From the NCBI GenBank assembly GCA_963841925.1, contig CAWJER010000005.1, positions 34,086-98,085 of the forward strand: 64,000 nucleotides of DNA, read 5' to 3'. Below the pieces are notes generated by a model. That model searched no databases and was not told the DNA's origin. It saw nothing but the letters and a program-made list of their open reading frames with translations. The stretch comes from an uncultured Acidimicrobiales bacterium (lineage in GTDB: Bacteria; Actinomycetota; Acidimicrobiia; Acidimicrobiales; RAAP-2). The position numbers and the translations under genes were made by a program. Numbering within the stretch: position 1 is the stretch's first letter; every line of letters begins with the position of its first letter. Of the stretch, positions 25,733 through 33,334 are shown in pieces.

Positions 25733-26896
25733 GTGACCCTGTCCGAAGCCGAGACGCCTCCAGTGGACCACTCACCCGGAGGCGACGGCCGTGGTGGTGC
25801 GGGCGCGGTGAGCTGGGACACGGCCGAGCGCGTCGCCGGCTGGGTCGGGAGCCGCACCCGGGTCCCGGCTCCCTACCGACCCGACCTCCTCCAGGCGGAA
25901 TTCGCCGAGCTGACGGCCCAGGCCGAGGAGCTGGTGGCCGTGTCGACCGGGCTGCGCTCCGCCGCCGGCCCGGCACGGGCCCGGGTGACCGACCGCGCCG
26001 GCTGGGTGGCGGCCAACGTGTCCAGCTTCCAGCGGCTGCTCGGCCCCCACCTCGACCGGCTCGACCCGAGCCGGCTGGGTGGGTCCAACGCCGCGCTGTC
26101 CCTGCTGGCCGGACCCTTGGCCACCGCCGGCCGCGCCGCCACGGGCGCCCAGATGGGTGTCGTCCTGGGCTGGCTCTCGACCCGTGTGCTCGGTCAGTAC
26201 GACCTGCTGCTCACCGAGGAGGCCGCCGACGAGCAGGACCTCGTCTACTTCGTGGGCCCGAACGTGGTCGCCCTCGAGCGCCAGCACGGGTTCGAGCCCC
26301 GGGAGTTCCGGCTGTGGCTGGCCCTGCACGAGGTCACGCACCGCTGCCAGTTCACGGCGATCCCGTGGATGCGGGACTACTTCGTGTCGCTGGTCGAGGA
26401 GGGCATCGGCACGCTCGAACCCGACCCCGCCCGGCTGGCGGCGGCGCTGCGGCGGATGACCGACCAGATCCGGGCCGGGCGCAACCCGCTCGAGGACAAC
26501 GGTGCACTCGGCCTGGTGGCCACTCCCGAGCAGCTCGAGGGACTCCACCGGATCCAGGCGCTGATGAGCCTGCTCGAGGGCCATGGAGACGTCACCATGG
26601 ACCGGGCCGGCGCCGCCGACATCCCGAGCGCCCCCCACTTCGCCGCAGTCCTGCGCCAGCGCCGCAAGCAGGCCCACGGGCTGTCGCGGATCCTCCAGCA
26701 GCTCATCGGGATCGAGGCGAAGCTCCGCCAGTACGAGGAGGGCGAGCGGTTCATCGCCGCCGTCGAGGAGGTGGGCGGGACCGGACTACTCGACAACGCG
26801 TGGCGGGGCCCCGAGTGGCTGCCCTCGCTCGAGGAGATCCGGGACCCTTCGGGCTGGATCTCGCGGGTCGCCGCCGCCGCCACGCTCGTCCCGTGA
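25733..26896 (+). CDS. DUF2342-family putative zinc metalloprotease
   Basis: HEVTHRCQF (HExxH). 387 aa. It sits upstream of tilS-hpt, as in other actinobacteria. Confidence 0.7.
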   Translation: MTLSEAETPPVDHSPGGDGRGGAGAVSWDTAERVAGWVGSRTRVPAPYRPDLLQAEFAELTAQAEELVAVSTGLRSAAGPARARVTDRAGWVAANVSSFQRLLGPHLDRLDPSRLGGSNAALSLLAGPLATAGRAATGAQMGVVLGWLSTRVLGQYDLLLTEEAADEQDLVYFVGPNVVALERQHGFEPREFRLWLALHEVTHRCQFTAIPWMRDYFVSLVEEGIGTLEPDPARLAAALRRMTDQIRAGRNPLEDNGALGLVATPEQLEGLHRIQALMSLLEGHGDVTMDRAGAADIPSAPHFAAVLRQRRKQAHGLSRILQQLIGIEAKLRQYEEGERFIAAVEEVGGTGLLDNAWRGPEWLPSLEEIRDPSGWISRVAAAATLVP

Positions 26897-26900
26897 GCCG

Positions 26901-27917
26901 GTGACCCGATCCCGGCCGCGGGAGACGGGCGGGGGGCCCGCCCACGCGCCAGGCGACACTCCCGCAGACGCCGGTGGGCGGCTGACGAACCGGATCCTGG
27001 CCGACGAACCCGGGGTCGCCGTCCTGCTGGCCCGGTGCACGTTCCCCCCGGCGGGGGAGTCGCTGGTGTGCGGGGTGTCCGGCGGACCCGATTCGACGGC
27101 GCTGCTCGCCCTGGCCGTGGCCGCCGGGTGCCGGCCCATCGCCGTGCACGTCGACCACGGGCTGCGGCCAGGGTCCGACGCCGAGGCCCACGTGGTGGCC
27201 ACCTCCGCCGACCGGCTCGGGGCGGCGTTCCGGTCCGTCCGGGTCGAGGTCCCCGACGGCCCCAATCTCGAGGCCCGTGCCCGGGAGGCCCGGCACCGGG
27301 CCCTCGGCACCGGCGCCGCCACGGGCCACACCATGGACGACCAGGCAGAGACGGTCCTGGGCAACCTGCTCCGGGGGGCCGGGGCCCACGGCCTGGCGGG
27401 CATGCGCGCCGGGTGGACCCACCCGCTCCTGGCCGTCCGGCGCCGCGAGACGGTGGCCCTGTGCGCTCGGTGGGGGCTCCCCACGGTCGAGGACCCGTCC
27501 AACGGTGACCCCAGGTTCGTCCGCAACCGGGTGCGCGCCGAACTGCTCCCGCTGTGCGCCCACATCGCCGGTCGCGACGTCGTGCCCGTACTGGCCCGCC
27601 AGGCCGTGCTCCTGGCCGGCGACGCCGACCTGCTCGACGCCGTCGGTGACCTGCTCGACCCCACCGACGCCGCCGCCCTGGCCGCCGCTCCCCCGGCGCA
27701 GGCCCGGCGTGCGCTCCGGCGGTGGTTGGCGTCCGGGGGGCCGTACCCGCCCCCGGCCGACGCCGTCGACCGGGTGCTCCAGGTGGCCCGGCTCGAGCGC
27801 CGGGCCACCGAGGTCCCCGGCGGGGTCCGGGTGTCCCGGTCCGCCGGGCGGCTCGTCCGGGTTCCGTCGGTGGGCCCCGGGCCGGGAGGGGTCGCCGGCG
27901 CTCCGGTACAGTCGTGA
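26901..27917 (+). CDS. tilS: tRNA(Ile)-lysidine synthase
   Basis: PP-loop motif [15 protein letters not shown], plus [11 protein letters not shown]. The start at GTG 26901 is a best guess; the upstream part of ORF 26583..27917 overlaps the previous gene. Confidence 0.8.
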
Positions 27918-27918
27918 C

Positions 27919-28500
27919 GTGACCAGTCCCGGCGACCACCGCCCCATCGACGGCTCGCGCCTCGAGGACGGTGACGAGGTCGGCGACGTGATCGTCTCCG
28001 AGGTGGACCTGCAGCGCCGCATCGCCGAGCTCGGGGCGGCAATCACCGGCGACTACGCGGGCCGGCCCCCACTCCTGGTCGGCGTGCTGAAGGGCGCGTT
28101 CATGTTCATGAGCGACCTGTCGAGGGCCATCGCCCTGCCCTCCGAGGTCGACTTCATGGCCGTCTCGTCCTATGGGACCGCCACCCGGACCTCGGGCGTG
28201 GTGCGGATCGTCAAGGACCTCGATGTGGACCTCGTCGACCGGCACGTCCTGGTGGTCGAGGACATCGTCGACAGCGGACTCACCCTCAGCTATCTCCAGC
28301 GCTACCTCCTTGCCCGTGAGCCGGCGAGCCTCGAGGTCTGCGCCCTCCTCGTCAAGGAGGGCCAGCAGCGCACCGCGGTCGACCTGCGCTACGTCGGGTT
28401 CACCATCCCGGCCGACTTCGTGATCGGGTACGGCCTCGACGTCGCCGAGCGCTACCGGAACCTGCCGGCCATCCACGCCTACCTCGGACCGAAGCCGTAG
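27919..28500 (+). CDS. hpt: Hypoxanthine phosphoribosyltransferase
   Basis: PRPP motif [20 protein letters not shown] at 27919, two nt after the tilS stop. Confidence 0.85.
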
Positions 28501-28635
28501 GCACCGACGGCCGGGATCGGGATGCCCGTGCGGTGCGGGACGGGTGCACCCGACACGGTGGGCGCCGACGCCGGGTAGAACGGGGCACCGGGCCCACGCA
28601 GCGGGCCGACCGACGACTGGAGAGGTGACCGGACG

Positions 28636-29205
28636 ATGAGCGTGGACACGAAGCGGATCGAGGCGGCCGTGCTCGAGATCCTCGCCGCCGTGGGCGAGGA
28701 CCCGGGACGTGACGGCCTCCTGAGGACGCCCGAGCGCGTCGCCCGGATGTACGAGGAGCTCTTCGCCGGCTTCGACCAGAACCCGGCCGATCATCTCGAG
28801 GTGACCTTCGCCGCCGACCACGACGAGATGGTCATGGTGCGGGACATCCCCTTCGCATCGCTGTGCGAGCACCACATGGTCCCGTTCATGGGCCGGGCCC
28901 ACGTGGCCTACATCCCGGGCTCGGACGGCCGGATCACCGGCCTGTCCAAGCTGGCCCGGCTCGTGGACGGCTTCGCCCGGCGCCTCCAGGTCCAAGAGCG
29001 CATGACCAGTCAGATCGCCGACGCCATCGAAGAGGCGCTCGACCCCAAGGGCGTGCTGGTGGTGGTCGACGCCGAGCACCTGTGCATGTCCATGCGGGGG
29101 GTCAAGAAGTCGGGCACGTCCACCGTCACCTCGGCCGTGCGCGGCCTCTTCCGGACCGATACCTCGACCCGGTTCGAGGCGATGCAGTTCGTCCGGGGCC
29201 GCTGA
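28636..29205 (+). CDS. folE: GTP cyclohydrolase I
   Basis: [22 protein letters not shown] and LQVQERMT. 189 aa. Confidence 0.9.
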
Positions 29206-29284: not shown

Positions 29285-30133
29285 ATGCCCCAAGCCTCCA
29301 CCGAGGAACGCGCCCTGGTCATGGGGATCCTGAACGTGACCCCGGACTCGTTCTCCGACGGCGGGCGCTGGTTCGAGCCGGAGCTGGCGATCCGTCGGGG
29401 CCACGAGATGGTCGACGAGGGTGCTGACATCGTCGACGTGGGAGGCGAGTCCTCCCGCCCGGGCGCCGTCGAGGTGCCGGTGGAGGAGGAGCTCAGGCGG
29501 GTGCTCCCGGTGGTGGAGGCGCTCTGCCCCCACGTGCGGGTATCCGTGGACACGGTGAAGGAGCCTGTCGCCGAGGCCGCAGTGGCCGCCGGGGCGACCC
29601 TGGTCAACGACGTGTCCGCCTCCCTGTGGCCGGTGGCCGCCCGGCACGGCGTCGGCTGGGTCGCCATGCACCGGAAAGGGACCCCGACCACCATGCAGGA
29701 CGATCCGCGCTACGACGACGTGGTGGCCGAGGTGCGCGACCTGCTCGCCGAGCGGGCCACCGCGGCACTCGAGGCAGGGGTGCCCGAGATCTGGATCGAT
29801 CCGGGGATCGGCTTCGGGAAGACGATCGACCACAACTTCGAGCTCCTGGCCCGGCTGGACGTGCTGGTGGCCACCGGCCACCCGGTCCTGGTCGGGACCA
29901 GCAGGAAGGCCTTCCTGGGGAGGCTCGCCGCCGGTCCCGACGGCGGGCCCGTGCCCCCCGCGGACCGGTTGCCGGGCTCCCTCGCCACGGCCACGTGGGC
30001 ACTCCAGCAGGGGGCGGGTATGGTCCGGGTCCACGACGTGGCCGCCACGGTGCAGGCCGCGCTCCTGGTGGGCGTGCCGGGCCGGGTCGGTCGCGACGTC
30101 GGGACGAGGACGGATACGGAGGTCACATCGTGA
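29285..30133 (+). CDS. folP: Dihydropteroate synthase
   Basis: MGILNVTPDSFSDGG, DIVDVGGESSRPGA, DPGIGFGK. Confidence 0.9.
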   Translation: MPQASTEERALVMGILNVTPDSFSDGGRWFEPELAIRRGHEMVDEGADIVDVGGESSRPGAVEVPVEEELRRVLPVVEALCPHVRVSVDTVKEPVAEAAVAAGATLVNDVSASLWPVAARHGVGWVAMHRKGTPTTMQDDPRYDDVVAEVRDLLAERATAALEAGVPEIWIDPGIGFGKTIDHNFELLARLDVLVATGHPVLVGTSRKAFLGRLAAGPDGGPVPPADRLPGSLATATWALQQGAGMVRVHDVAATVQAALLVGVPGRVGRDVGTRTDTEVTS

Positions 30134-30669
30134 AGGGCAAGTGGGCGGCGGGCATCCCGCCGCGGAACTTCACCTGGGTGATCAAGGATCGCCTGGCCAT
30201 GAGCGAGCGTCCGGGCGGGTTCGCCCCGAACCACCGCAAGGTCCGGCGCCAGGAGGAGATCATCTGGCTCCAGGTCCAGGGATTCAACCGGGTGGTGTCG
30301 CTGCTCCCGTCGTCGCACAACCTGCAGGCGTACGAGGAGAAGTCACTGGCCAGCGTCCACTACCCCCTGCCGGCCTCGGGTGACGTCCGCGGCGTCCTGG
30401 GCGAGGTCTACCGCGACGTCCACGCCCGACTCGCCACCGGCGAGCGGATCCTGGTGCACCAGGAGGAGCTGGGCGACCGGGTGTCGGGGGTCATTGCCGG
30501 CTACCTGCTGTGGTCGGACCGGCTGCCCACCGGCCCCCAGTCCATCACTGCGCTCGAGCACCTGACCGGGCACCCGATGGGGCCCTCGGGCCGCGAGCTC
30601 GTGGCCTATGCCGGCCAACTGGCCCCACCGGCCACCCCCCACGACGCGGGTACCGGCCGCCGGGCGTGA
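30130..30669 (+). CDS. Dual-specificity-phosphatase-like protein with the catalytic Cys replaced by Gln
   Basis: The GTG at 30130 overlaps the folP stop, and its TGA overlaps the folB ATG. DSP-like layout with the P-loop ILVHQEELGDRVSGVIAGYLL. This is the HCx5R signature with Q in place of C; the Arg is retained. Confidence 0.6.
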   Translation: MKGKWAAGIPPRNFTWVIKDRLAMSERPGGFAPNHRKVRRQEEIIWLQVQGFNRVVSLLPSSHNLQAYEEKSLASVHYPLPASGDVRGVLGEVYRDVHARLATGERILVHQEELGDRVSGVIAGYLLWSDRLPTGPQSITALEHLTGHPMGPSGRELVAYAGQLAPPATPHDAGTGRRA

Positions 30670-31046
30670 TGGCCGGCGCACCGGACGACCGCATCGAGCT
30701 GCGCGGGCTCCGCAGCGTAGGCACCCACGGCGTCCTGGCCGAGGAACAGGAGCGGGCCCAGCCCTTCGAGGTCGACCTGGACCTGTCCGTCGACCTGCGC
30801 CCCGCCGGTGGGTCGGACGCCCTGGCCGACACGGTCGACTACGGGGAGGTGGCGGCCGTCGTGGCGGCGGTCGTGTCGGGCCCCCGGTCGTTCGCCCTCC
30901 TCGAGGCCCTGGCCTGGCACGTGGCCGACGCCGTGCTCGACGTCGACCGCAGGATCGACGGGGTCGCCGTGACCCTCCGGAAGCTGCGGCCGCCCCTGGC
31001 CGTGGACATCGACACCGTCGGTGTGCGGGTGGTCCGCCACCGGTGA
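30669..31046 (+). CDS. folB: Dihydroneopterin aldolase
   Basis: IELRGLRSVGTHGVLAEEQERAQPFEVDLDL. 125 aa. Confidence 0.85.
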   Translation: MAGAPDDRIELRGLRSVGTHGVLAEEQERAQPFEVDLDLSVDLRPAGGSDALADTVDYGEVAAVVAAVVSGPRSFALLEALAWHVADAVLDVDRRIDGVAVTLRKLRPPLAVDIDTVGVRVVRHR

Positions 31047-31543
31047 CCGCACCGTCGCCGGCGGTGCCCACCGTGCGGGCGTTCCTGTCGATGGGGTCGA
31101 ACCTCGGTGACCGCACGACCCACCTCCGTCGGGCCGTGGACCAGCTCCGGGCGGGGAGCGACCCGGCGGTCACCGCCGTCTCCCGGGTCTACGAGACCGA
31201 GCCGATGGGCGGGCCAGACGACCAGGGTGCCTACTTGAACCTGGTGGTGGAGCTGGCCGTGGCGGCCGTCGACGATCCGTTCCGGCTGCTGGAGCAGTGC
31301 CACCGACTGGAGGCCGCCGCCGGCCGGGTGCGCACGGTGCGCTGGGGACCGCGCACGCTCGACGTCGACGTGATCTGGATCGACGGGGTCGTCGTCGACG
31401 ACCCCGAGCTGACCGTGCCCCATCCGCGGTGGCGCGAGCGGCGCTTCGTGCTGGCCCCCCTGGCGGAGCTGGCCCCGGACCTGGTCGGGCCGGACGACCT
31501 CGAGTCCGCTGGCGGCGAGGTGCGCGTCGTGGGTAGTGTCTAA
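31043..31543 (+). CDS. folK: 2-amino-4-hydroxy-6-hydroxymethyldihydropteridine diphosphokinase
   Basis: The GTG overlaps the folB stop. AFLSMGSNLGDR, RWGPRTLDVDV, PHPR. Confidence 0.85.
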   Translation: MTAPSPAVPTVRAFLSMGSNLGDRTTHLRRAVDQLRAGSDPAVTAVSRVYETEPMGGPDDQGAYLNLVVELAVAAVDDPFRLLEQCHRLEAAAGRVRTVRWGPRTLDVDVIWIDGVVVDDPELTVPHPRWRERRFVLAPLAELAPDLVGPDDLESAGGEVRVVGSV

Positions 31544-31610
31544 CCAGCAGTTCCTGGATTTCCTGATGCGAACGGCACCCTGCGGGGGCTGGAACGTCGA
31601 AAGGGGTCTC

Positions 31611-32432
31611 GTGACCACATTCCGTGTACTCGGACCGGGCCGTGCCGGCCGGTCGTTGATGGCAGCCCTGGTCGCTGTCGGTGGCTATCGCCCTGCGGGC
31701 GCCTGGGGGCGCGACCGGTCCCCGGTCGATGCCGCCCTGGGGGTGGACCTGCTGTTCATCGCCACCCCTGACGACGTGGTCGCCGACGTCGCCGCCGCCG
31801 TGCGCCCGCTCGACAGCACCGCCGTGATCCACCTGTCGGGCTCCCTCGGCCTCGACGTCCTGGCCGGTCACCCGAGGTGCGGGTCTCTCCATCCGCTGGT
31901 GCCGCTCCCCACGCCCGCCATCGGGGCGGAGCGCCTGCGCTCCGGCATCACGTTCGCCGTCGCCGGCGACCCGGCGGCCCGCGCTGTGGCCGGGGACCTG
32001 GGCGGCAACGTGGTGGAGGTGGCCGACACGGACCGCGCCGCCTACCACGCCGCGGCGGTGATCGCCGCCAACCACCTGGTGGCCCTCATGGGCCAGGTCG
32101 AACGTGTGGCTGCAACCACCGGACTCCCACTCGACGCCTTCGCCGGCCTGATGCGGGCGGCAACCGAGGACGCCCTGGCCCTCGGCCCGCGGTCGGCGCT
32201 CACCGGACCGGCGGTCCGGGGCGACTGGGAGACGGTGGAGCGACACCGGGCGGCGATCGCCGCCATGCCCGCCCACCGGACCGAGCTCGCCGGTTACGAC
32301 GCCATGGTGGCCATGGCCCGGCGACTCTCACTCGACACGGCGGACGACCTCGACCCCGCCGGTGCGGACGCACTGGGCGGGCCCGCGGTGCCCACCGAGG
32401 TGACGGGGGCCGTCACCGAGCAGGTGGCGTGA
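31611..32432 (+). CDS. Rossmann-like / DUF2520 domain protein (PanG-type ketopantoate-reductase-like)
   Basis: FRVLGPGRAGRSL dinucleotide fold. DUF2520-like C-terminus (YHAAAVIAANHLVAL...LTGPAVRGD). It lies directly upstream of panC. RBS aaagggg precedes the GTG at 31611. Confidence 0.6.
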   Translation: MTTFRVLGPGRAGRSLMAALVAVGGYRPAGAWGRDRSPVDAALGVDLLFIATPDDVVADVAAAVRPLDSTAVIHLSGSLGLDVLAGHPRCGSLHPLVPLPTPAIGAERLRSGITFAVAGDPAARAVAGDLGGNVVEVADTDRAAYHAAAVIAANHLVALMGQVERVAATTGLPLDAFAGLMRAATEDALALGPRSALTGPAVRGDWETVERHRAAIAAMPAHRTELAGYDAMVAMARRLSLDTADDLDPAGADALGGPAVPTEVTGAVTEQVA

Positions 32433-33334
32433 CCGTCGCCACGGCCCGGGTGGGTGCGGCCGCCACCGGTGCGGCAGTCGTCGACACCATGGCCGGGCTC
32501 TCGGCCCGGCTCGACGACGAGCGGCGCCAGGGTCGCTCCGTGGGCGTGGTGCTCACCATGGGCGCGCTCCACCGCGGGCACACCGCACTGGTGGGGCAGG
32601 CTGCGTCGGAGTGCGACACGGTGGCCGTCAGCATCTTCGTCAACCCCACCCAGTTCGCCGAGACCGCCGACCTGACCAACTACCCCCGCACGCTGGGTGC
32701 CGACGTCGACGCCGCCGGTGCGGCTGGGGCAGCGCTGGTGTTCGCGCCGACGGTCGACGAGATGTACCCGGGTTGGCCCTCTCCACCGGCGACCACGGTG
32801 TCGGTGCGGGGCCTGGCCGCACGGTGGGAGGGGGCGTCCCGTCCCGGCCACTTCGACGGTGTGGCCACCGTGGTGGTCAAGCTCCTGTCCGGTGCCGGGC
32901 GGTGCCGGACCTACTTCGGCGAGAAGGACTTCCAACAGCTCGCCGTCGTCCGCCGCGCCACCGCGGACCTGTCGCTCCCGGTCACGGTGGTCGGCTGTCC
33001 CACCGTCCGCGAGGCCGACGGCCTGGCCCTGTCGAGCCGGAACGTGCGCCTGGGCCCGGACGAGCGCGCCGCCGCACCGGTGCTGCACCGCGCCCTGTGC
33101 GTCGGTTCGGCGGTCCTGGCGGCCGGCGGTGACCGGGCCGCCGTCGAGCGGGCCATGGCGGCCGAGGTGGCCGCCGAGCCCCTCGTCGCCCTCGACTACG
33201 CCGCCCTGGTCGATGCCCGGGACCTCGAGCCGGCAGCCGACCTGGGGGACGACCGTCCCCTGCGTCTCCTGATCGCCGCCACCGTCGGACCCGTGCGGTT
33301 GATCGACAACCTCGACCCCCGGCGACCGTCATGA
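32429..33334 (+). CDS. panC: Pantoate-beta-alanine ligase
   Basis: TMGALHRGH (HxGH), YFGEKDFQQ, LALSSRN. The start is GTG 32429 or an internal ATG. Confidence 0.85.
   Translation: MTVATARVGAAATGAAVVDTMAGLSARLDDERRQGRSVGVVLTMGALHRGHTALVGQAASECDTVAVSIFVNPTQFAETADLTNYPRTLGADVDAAGAAGAALVFAPTVDEMYPGWPSPPATTVSVRGLAARWEGASRPGHFDGVATVVVKLLSGAGRCRTYFGEKDFQQLAVVRRATADLSLPVTVVGCPTVREADGLALSSRNVRLGPDERAAAPVLHRALCVGSAVLAAGGDRAAVERAMAAEVAAEPLVALDYAALVDARDLEPAADLGDDRPLRLLIAATVGPVRLIDNLDPRRPS

Follow-up and report, generated by a model that had tools for sequence, protein, structure and literature searches.

Between the folate genes folP and folB of an uncultured Acidimicrobiales bacterium lies a small gene, here called gene X, and its position raises the question of whether its product takes part in folate synthesis. 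The gene was found in a 64,000-nt stretch of DNA (assembly GCA_963841925.1, contig CAWJER010000005.1, positions 34,086 to 98,085 of the forward strand), referred to below as the window, in which position 1 is the first letter. The original prediction had named X as a candidate for the missing step that removes phosphate from dihydroneopterin triphosphate (DHNTP), or for a phosphate-binding, non-catalytic partner of that step. The analysis described here points to another answer. The product of gene X is firmly assigned to the dual-specificity-phosphatase (DSP) fold on the basis of profile searches and a predicted structure, and it is probably not the missing phosphatase of the folate pathway. 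Judging from the sequences and the model, we hold with reasonable confidence that X is a non-catalytic, DSP-fold pseudophosphatase that acts by binding and whose role does not require folate to be made de novo.

The gene and its translation signal were read as follows.

30130..30669, + strand: gene X, encoding a 179-aa DSP-fold protein without the catalytic Cys, a predicted pseudophosphatase (from translation, profile and predicted structure)

30118..30122, + strand: Shine-Dalgarno sequence GGAGG, inside the end of folP and 7 nt 5' of the GTG start (read from the sequence)

Translation of the frame 30130–30669 gave 179 aa with no internal stop, and this open reading frame (ORF) is the tail of a longer open frame at 29626–30669 in the ORF list. 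The GTG at 30130 was taken as the start from the upstream GGAGG and its spacer, and the orthologues have a shared N-terminus, M/V/L-[KR]-G-[KR]-W-A, that begins at the same position. The start codon (30130–30132) overlaps the folP stop codon TGA (30131–30133) in a GTGA, while the stop codon of X (TGA, 30667–30669) and the folB ATG (30669–30671) have one base in common in a TGATG; within the folB ORF, the Pfam match to FolB starts from residue 9. Both the 179-aa frame and its overlaps with the two neighbours, as originally described, were therefore confirmed. X is single-copy in the source genome. The ratio of nonsynonymous to synonymous substitution rates (dN/dS) was 0.07–0.17 against four same-genus relatives, while a value of 0.65 against a distant orthologue (L048) was set aside as unreliable at such divergence. 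Since X was also found in 148 of the 151 genomes sampled from the class Acidimicrobiia, it is not a chance ORF, and the overlaps suggest that this real gene is expressed by translational coupling. The 4-base overlap with folP and the Gln at residue 111, considered below, are traits of the genus and not of the whole family.

The fold of X was not apparent from family databases, in which no match to Pfam-A or NCBIfam was obtained even at E ≤ 10. Among 5.8 billion proteins, 3819 matched X at E ≤ 0.001, and every source name in the best 120 of the 3819 was 'hypothetical protein', these entries coming from Acidimicrobiales metagenome bins. When X alone was searched against the sequences of the PDB, 25xa_A, named 'Dual specificity protein phosphatase family protein', was found at 3.8e-5. 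With a profile made from an alignment of 46 sequences (A1), the same entry was found at 5.3e-11 and human VHR/DUSP3 at 1e-4. The AlphaFold2 model built on A1 reached a pLDDT of 92.7 and a pTM of 0.87, and its top Foldseek match was DUSP23/VHZ (5.9e-9, TM 0.85 on the target), followed by ShufPTP, KAP, Tk-PTP, baculovirus RNA 5'-phosphatase, Cdc14 and Siw14. VIA-align superposed the model on DUSP23 (2img) with a Z of 19.4 and an rmsd of 2.1 Å over 145 residues at 22% identity, and in the ESM Atlas the closest clusters with a family name carried PTP-SAK, Tc-R-P and DSPc. The AlphaFold2 model, the DUSP23 match and the 25xa_A profile match thus all showed the alpha/beta fold of protein tyrosine phosphatases (PTP) and DSPs. 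The DSP-like fold proposed originally was borne out, and although Pfam gave nothing, the PDB profile and the predicted structure led to a DSP and not to an unrelated fold.

The catalytic residues were then located from the alignment with 25xa_A, in which HMMER paired LVHQEELGDRVSG of X with LIHCRAGYGRTG of the solved protein. Gln111 falls at the position of the catalytic Cys, and Arg117 at that of the Arg of the phosphate-binding loop (P-loop). Two features of the protein are needed for what follows.

30457..30489, + strand: degenerate P-loop, residues 110–120, H-Q-E-E-L-G-D-R-V-S-G, with Gln at the Cys slot and a net acidic charge

30205..30267, + strand: family-specific segment E26-R27-P-G-G...H35-R36-K-V-R39-R40-Q-E42-E43-I-I-W46, which includes a basic stretch

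In X, residues 107–127 read ILVHQEELGDRVSGVIAGYLL, and Gln111 is encoded by cag at 30460–30462. The original description of a phosphatase-like layout with Gln in the Cys slot and the Arg present therefore holds for the window gene. The family as a whole was examined in X sequences from 60 loci, which were reduced to 44 non-redundant Acidimicrobiia orthologues after 14 same-genus or same-genome near-duplicates and two out-of-class sequences were dropped. At slot 111 the 44 orthologues have Arg (14), His (11), Gly (7), Ala (4) and, in the rest, Gln, Leu, Val, Met, Asn or Tyr, with Cys in none. Among 150 listed representatives of 50%-identity clusters, 84 covered this slot, and they have Gln (25), His (14), Gly (13), Arg (11) and others, again with Cys in 0/84. 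Gln at 111 was found in 119 of 120 close homologues and is thus a trait of the source genus. An extra orthologue of family f7, from genome G129 (L079), reads I-V-H-C-E-E-V-S-D-K, with Cys at 111 and Lys at 117; this looks like the chance reappearance of Cys at a freely varying position. The H-C-x5-R signature with its nucleophilic Cys is accordingly missing from the window gene and from both sets of homologues.

The P-loop Arg was not invariant either. Slot 117 is Arg in 24 of the 44 orthologues, the others having Thr (10), Glu (3), Leu (2) and one each of Pro, Ala, Gly and Asp, and it is Arg in 45 of the 77 covering representatives among the 150 listed. Two loop forms occur among the orthologues, x-E-E-x-G-D-R and R-[ED]-x-x-D-D-T. 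Residue 113 is acidic and 117 basic in 24/44, 113 is acidic without a basic 117 in five, the reverse occurs in none and neither is present in 15; all 24 orthologues with Arg117 have an acidic 113, and Arg or Lys at 117 was seen in 0/15 of those with a non-acidic 113. This pairing is a pattern and not a statistical test, as related sequences are not independent. Residues 111–117 have a net charge of −2 to −4 in all 44 orthologues, position 112 is Glu or Asp in 43/44, and position 116 is Asp or Glu in 44/44. Position 85, a candidate for the general-acid Asp on the loop after strand 4, is Glu or Asp in 37/44. From its composition, an acidic, Cys-less loop of this kind cannot be expected to serve as the phosphate cradle of a PTP.

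Conservation was found instead at other positions. Residues W16, G29, G30, R36, R39, R40, E43, W46 and H110 are fully invariant, the last in 44/44 orthologues, and G8, P11, R12, E26, R27, H35, E42, N64, Y68, G120, Y125 and R155 are nearly so; in the 46 sequences of A1, E26, R27, H35 and E42 each occur in at least 90%. Opposite nhRrvR, within the H35-R36-x-x-R39-R40 basic stretch of X, 25xa_A shows a 6-residue gap. The core domain as a whole is slightly acidic, with a median net charge of −2 and a range of −7 to +4 over the 44 orthologues. The fold is thus kept, the catalytic residues are lost and the gene is under purifying selection (dN/dS 0.07–0.17, and 0.06–0.10 in family f7, described below), which is the pattern of a pseudophosphatase. 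As the nucleophilic Cys has been lost within a DSP fold, the earlier idea of a non-catalytic protein is supported; the phosphate-binding loop that was part of the same idea did not stand, given Arg117 in only 24/44 orthologues and a net acidic loop in 44/44.

The distribution of the family was wide within the class and narrow beyond it. X was found in 40 of 41 relatives and 17 of 17 genera, and the 151 class genomes mentioned above include many of about 1 Mb. Among class genomes at least 90% complete it was found in 133/134. Three class genomes had no X match, namely G085 (99% complete), G103 (88%) and G115 (87%). When 301 genomes were drawn from the whole phylum, X had a match in 27, with 23 of the 24 class members among them; outside the class 4/277 matched, all weakly, three being of family f66 (1.3e-14 to 2e-7) and one a 45-residue match at 4.7e-4. 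These phylum-wide tallies include four genomes flagged as unpublished (G190, G206, G234 and G272), from which no locus was drawn and which support nothing here apart from these counts. A scan of GTDB species genomes returned 540 relatives, the best 80 of which were all Acidimicrobiales, Acidimicrobiaceae or unclassified Actinomycetota/Actinomycetes bins. The X family is therefore near-universal in Acidimicrobiia and almost confined to this class.

Whether X follows the folate pathway was determined from the presence of HPPK, the product of folK, which was searched in the same 151 class genomes and found in 141. X and HPPK were both found in 140 genomes, X without HPPK in eight, HPPK without X in one (G085) and neither in two (G103 and G115). 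Six of the eight genomes with X only belong to family f7 and are 98–100% complete (G030, G081, G113, G129, G141 and G145). FolB was searched in two of these six, G030 and G081, and found in neither, and GTP cyclohydrolase I, of either type IA or type IB, was not found in the four of the six that were searched for it, G030, G081, G129 and G145. As neither type was found, these four genomes should make no DHNTP. In the f7 genomes where these genes were not found, X is intact with all invariant residues, and in this family it remains constrained, with a dN/dS of 0.10 for G081 against G113 and 0.06 for G141 against G073; within the f7 genus g7, the proportion of nonsynonymous differences (pN) was 0.13–0.17 with synonymous sites saturated.

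Two single loci showed the same separation from opposite sides. In G107 (about 1.1 Mb, 88% complete), the order tilS-hpt-ftsH-X-panC-coaX-lysS was read (L084, 1–6456), and searches of the whole genome for folE, folP and folK gave no match. Four fol genes have been excised there from the ancestral block described below and X has been left in place, which suggests a folate-auxotrophic, streamlined lineage. In G085, assembled as one contig, the order is hpt-folE-folP-folB-folK-panC with 68 nt between folP and folB, and X was absent by both single-protein and profile search. The lack of X in G103 and G115 had been considered as a loss together with the fol genes, but it is uninformative, as panC is missing too and the assemblies are 87–88% complete; the whole ancestral block is probably unassembled in these two. 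X thus did not track the pathway as a folate enzyme or an obligate accessory would. The proposal that X supplies the missing removal of phosphate from DHNTP is not supported on these grounds, since X is kept where HPPK, FolB or GTP cyclohydrolase I is not found, survives in G107 and is lacking from the fol operon of the complete genome G085.

The position of X between folP and folB must then be explained, and for this the surrounding genes were considered. In the window they are as follows.

28636..29205, + strand: folE, GTP cyclohydrolase I (PF01227, 1.7e-77)

29285..30133, + strand: folP, dihydropteroate synthase (PF00809, 1.4e-76), its stop overlapping the X start

30669..31046, + strand: folB, dihydroneopterin aldolase (PF02152, 5.6e-31), its start overlapping the X stop

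31043..31543, + strand: folK, HPPK (PF01288, 1.7e-37), with a GTGA overlap with folB

26850..28500, + strand: tilS and hpt, starts not fixed (PF01171 and PF09179; PF00156), the upstream part of the ancestral block

31536..33334, + strand: a DUF2520 gene and panC (PF10728; PF02569), the downstream part of the ancestral block

The order of the window by Pfam is Zincin_2, tilS, hpt, folE, folP, X, folB, folK, the DUF2520 gene, panC and nadB. Nearly the same series, tilS-hpt-ftsH-(folE)-folP-(folB)-folK-(DUF2520-panC)-coaX-(lysS), was found in nine of ten sampled genomes of other Actinomycetota classes, so the block is old, and it mixes genes of tRNA modification, purine salvage, proteolysis, folate and CoA. 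In those nine genomes, folP is followed directly by folB or folK in seven and by another gene in two, and folB lies 52–74 nt after folP in three. The folP–folB junction is occupied by an alpha/beta hydrolase gene in L173 (6136–6969, minus strand) and by a cyclophilin gene in L175 (6254–6997, minus strand). As the block mixes functions and this junction takes unrelated genes, the place between folP and folB is weak evidence for a folate role. With regard to ftsH, it lies between hpt and folE in 9/10 of the sampled genomes and after hpt in G107, while no ftsH is present at 28500–28636 of the window, where folE directly follows hpt. The source genome also has a second folP-like stretch (G000:C6:225521-226318), with 44% identity to the window FolP and one in-frame TGA.

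Within the class, the window Fol proteins were mapped onto 37 loci from 37 genomes with 3-kb flanks (L022–L041 and L045–L061). folP is directly upstream of X in 33 of these (the exceptions being L031, L045, L051 and L052), and folB is directly downstream in 22. Conservation in the fol operons of relatives, on which the earlier proposal had been made to depend, was thus seen in part: the adjacency to folP was upheld, whereas X persists without the pathway and the fol operon of G085 lacks it. The order folP-X-folK occurs in five loci, and a replacement of FolB by X was ruled out for them, since each of the five genomes carries a FolB at another locus, together with folE and a second folK. These second clusters (L068–L072, in G057, G096, G092, G170 and G076 of families f33, f35 and f51) have the order folB-folK2-folE, giving two HPPK genes per genome. 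In family f7, none of the five loci first fetched has a fol gene near X, and in the two that were scanned with Pfam, X lies between tilS and an epimerase gene; G053 and G133 of this family have folP, folB and folK elsewhere in the genome. The adjacency of tilS and X in f7 is therefore not a new association but a remnant of the old block, from which the fol genes have departed.

These observations can be brought together in the following scheme. X, a DSP-fold protein, would be unable to carry out Cys-based phosphate transfer. Its old catalytic loop would have become Cys-less and net acidic, and the family would have gained an Arg-rich segment (R36, R39 and R40, with R12, R27 and R155). In VHR, the segment that corresponds to the basic stretch is the 'variable insert', which borders the active-site cleft in DSP structures, and it is from this general DSP architecture that the Arg-rich segment is predicted to lie near the old pocket. 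The charged surface may form an internally salt-bridged plug of the pocket, or it may bind a partner or some small charged ligand; a steady loop charge of −2 with three invariant Arg alongside would suit a plug, whereas the number of invariant charged residues would suit a binding site. As for its history, X may have been inserted at the root of Acidimicrobiia into a permissive junction of the old housekeeping block and then fixed, with translational coupling at folP–folB supplying steady expression.

Several points weigh against this explanation. The adjacency of folP and X is strongly kept, and the genes overlap in the source genus, as is usual for functionally linked genes. Genes 'not found' in genomes are not proof of absence, and G107 is only 88% complete. 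Folate auxotrophs still use folates, so a role of X elsewhere in folate or pterin handling is possible. The invariant R36, R39, R40, E43, H110, E/D112 and D/E116 resemble a small-molecule or metal site more than a plain protein-binding surface.

In one alternative explanation, X is a non-catalytic accessory of the pterin-branch enzymes, either an adaptor between FolP and FolB/FolK or a binder of pterin phosphates, with a second role that would explain its retention in auxotrophs. The direct neighbourhood of folP (33/37) and folB (22/37) and the overlap with both genes in the window are as such an accessory would have them, and many metagenomic gene calls even join folP, X and folB, confirming the gene order. 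The domains in these calls are broken, however: the folP-X, X-folB and tilS-X 'fusions' had been considered as Rosetta-stone evidence, but their matches to Pterin_bind, FolB, HPPK and PP-loop are incomplete and interrupted, so that they look like frameshifted calls and not true fusions. Complex prediction of X as the partner of FolP, FolB and FolK, with all four supplied as alignments, scored 0.08 and 0.02, where the mark is 0.32; having been run without controls, it speaks neither way on binding. An accessory of this branch would not be expected to stay constrained by purifying selection in genomes that gave no FolK (and, in the subsets searched, neither FolB nor GTP cyclohydrolase I), to stay in place after the clean loss of four fol genes in G107, to be missing from the fol operon of a complete genome, G085, or to stay beside tilS in f7 when the fol genes had moved off. 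We therefore regard this explanation as unlikely. The nearness of tilS in f7 could instead be taken to mean that X binds nucleic acid or the nucleoid, or works with tRNA-related neighbours such as TilS. In family f39, open frames of 452–479 aa were found at X in 4/4 sampled genomes (G082, G069, G142 and G175), and the translated gene of G082 (L037, 2119–3486, minus strand) ends in a histone-H1-like tail of about 280 aa that is rich in Lys, Ala and Glu; the representatives P0122 and P0144 match the HC2 histone-H1-like family, though below the cut-off. Such tails vary, however, from Ser/Lys repeats (L060) to an acidic extension (L053), and most X proteins have no tail; the core domain is also slightly acidic, and the tilS adjacency is left over from the old block. 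A nucleic-acid role thus appears highly improbable.

The invariant charged residues can also be read as an active site, in which X would be a metal-dependent phosphohydrolase that has replaced the Cys chemistry, with H110, E/D112 and D/E116 as ligands, invariant Arg holding a polyphosphate and DHNTP among the substrates. The invariant set does mix acidic residues, His and Arg, as in polyphosphate-metal enzymes, and several structural neighbours (baculovirus RNA 5'-phosphatase, PIR1/DUSP11 and Siw14) are PTP-fold enzymes with activity towards triphosphate or pyrophosphate termini. A gap in the pathway might also be filled in this way: with the NudB model NF006961, the source genome gave only sub-cut-off Nudix matches, the best at 26.5 bits against a cut-off of 103, although this model is narrow, passing in 1 of 14 control genomes (E. 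coli), and so gives no proof that the source genome lacks a DHNTP pyrophosphatase. According to PMC1971073, FolQ is the DHNTP pyrophosphatase, most bacteria had no known gene for it as of 2007, and the last phosphate was believed to be removed by a non-specific phosphatase. On the other side, DHNTP cannot be the substrate that retains the gene, as genomes that gave no match to GTP cyclohydrolase I of type IA or IB still keep X. No characterised enzyme of the PTP fold is known to work without the Cys, and in PTP-fold proteins the His that precedes the Cys slot is buried and has a structural role. This possibility is accordingly considered very unlikely. A bolder form of it, in which the PTP/DSP scaffold has been turned into a Cys-independent, metal-assisted site that binds or hydrolyses polyphosphate on a universal phospho-metabolite, DHNTP included in folate producers, seems barely probable; the acidic former P-loop and H110 would hold a cation and six invariant Arg the phosphates. 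If true, the FolQ step, long missing, would be accounted for in a whole class, by a chemistry new for the PTP/DSP fold.

With the non-catalytic pseudophosphatase as the preferred reading, several consequences follow for the annotation of these genomes. An attractive but wrong candidate for the DHNTP-phosphate steps in Acidimicrobiia is removed, and the natural gene-loss cases show that genes may share even a tight, overlapping operon for historical rather than functional reasons. X represents a previously unannotated family, with no Pfam or NCBIfam model and with listed source names that are all 'hypothetical protein'. As it is near-universal in Acidimicrobiia, kept in genomes of about 1 Mb and almost absent elsewhere, it would be a class-specific housekeeping pseudoenzyme, and its partner or ligand is worth finding. 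Searches of the literature on folate biosynthesis in Acidimicrobiia turned up only unrelated papers, judged by titles and the starts of abstracts, and among the matches listed for bacterial dual-specificity pseudophosphatases, no title concerns a bacterial DSP pseudophosphatase.

Compared with known systems, X differs clearly from the enzymes of the folate step. FolQ/NudB (Nudix) and the FolQ2 candidates (HD family) occur in the fol clusters of some bacteria, as stated in PMC1971073. X, in contrast, has no Nudix or HD Pfam match, has a DSP fold and does not track the pathway in its presence; neither a Nudix fold nor a Nudix box was found in it, with no Pfam or NCBIfam match at E ≤ 10. The f66 homologues outside the class (L042 and L043) are closer, sharing E-R-P-G-G...S-H-R...R-R...E...W-W and the His at 27–33% identity. 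Unlike X, they keep the Cys (H-C-D-R-x-x-E-W) and have Trp at the Arg slot, and their neighbours are sugar-transferase, GT4 glycosyltransferase and ECF-type sigma factor genes, not fol genes. They may be a separate non-canonical DSP group. As f66 has both the basic segment and the Cys, the segment may be older than the Cys loss, and in that family nothing links it to folate genes.

In fold, X stands nearest to DUSP23/VHZ and the small archaeal and bacterial PTPs (SsoPTP, Tk-PTP and ShufPTP; PTP-SAK, Tc-R-P and DSPc), with which it shares the whole domain; Tk-PTP and ShufPTP superpose on the X model with a Z of 16–17. It resembles these proteins in the N-terminal P-x-N-F-x-W-V strand, the His before the Cys slot and the E-E-I-x-W helix, and it differs from them in having no Cys, a P-loop Arg that is not conserved, an acidic loop and an extra basic stretch before helix 1. 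The closest solved sequence, 25xa_A, aligned over residues 12–146 and, unlike X, has a canonical H-C-x5-R-T-G loop and no 6-residue basic stretch. In function, X would at most be a parallel to STYX and MK-STYX, eukaryotic DSP pseudophosphatases in which the nucleophilic Cys is replaced and which act by binding. STYX, which binds phosphorylated ligands, has retained the P-loop Arg, whereas in X the Arg is dispensable and the loop acidic, so that phosphate binding in the old pocket is unlikely; also unlike STYX, X is bacterial, confined almost entirely to one class and encoded in a housekeeping operon.

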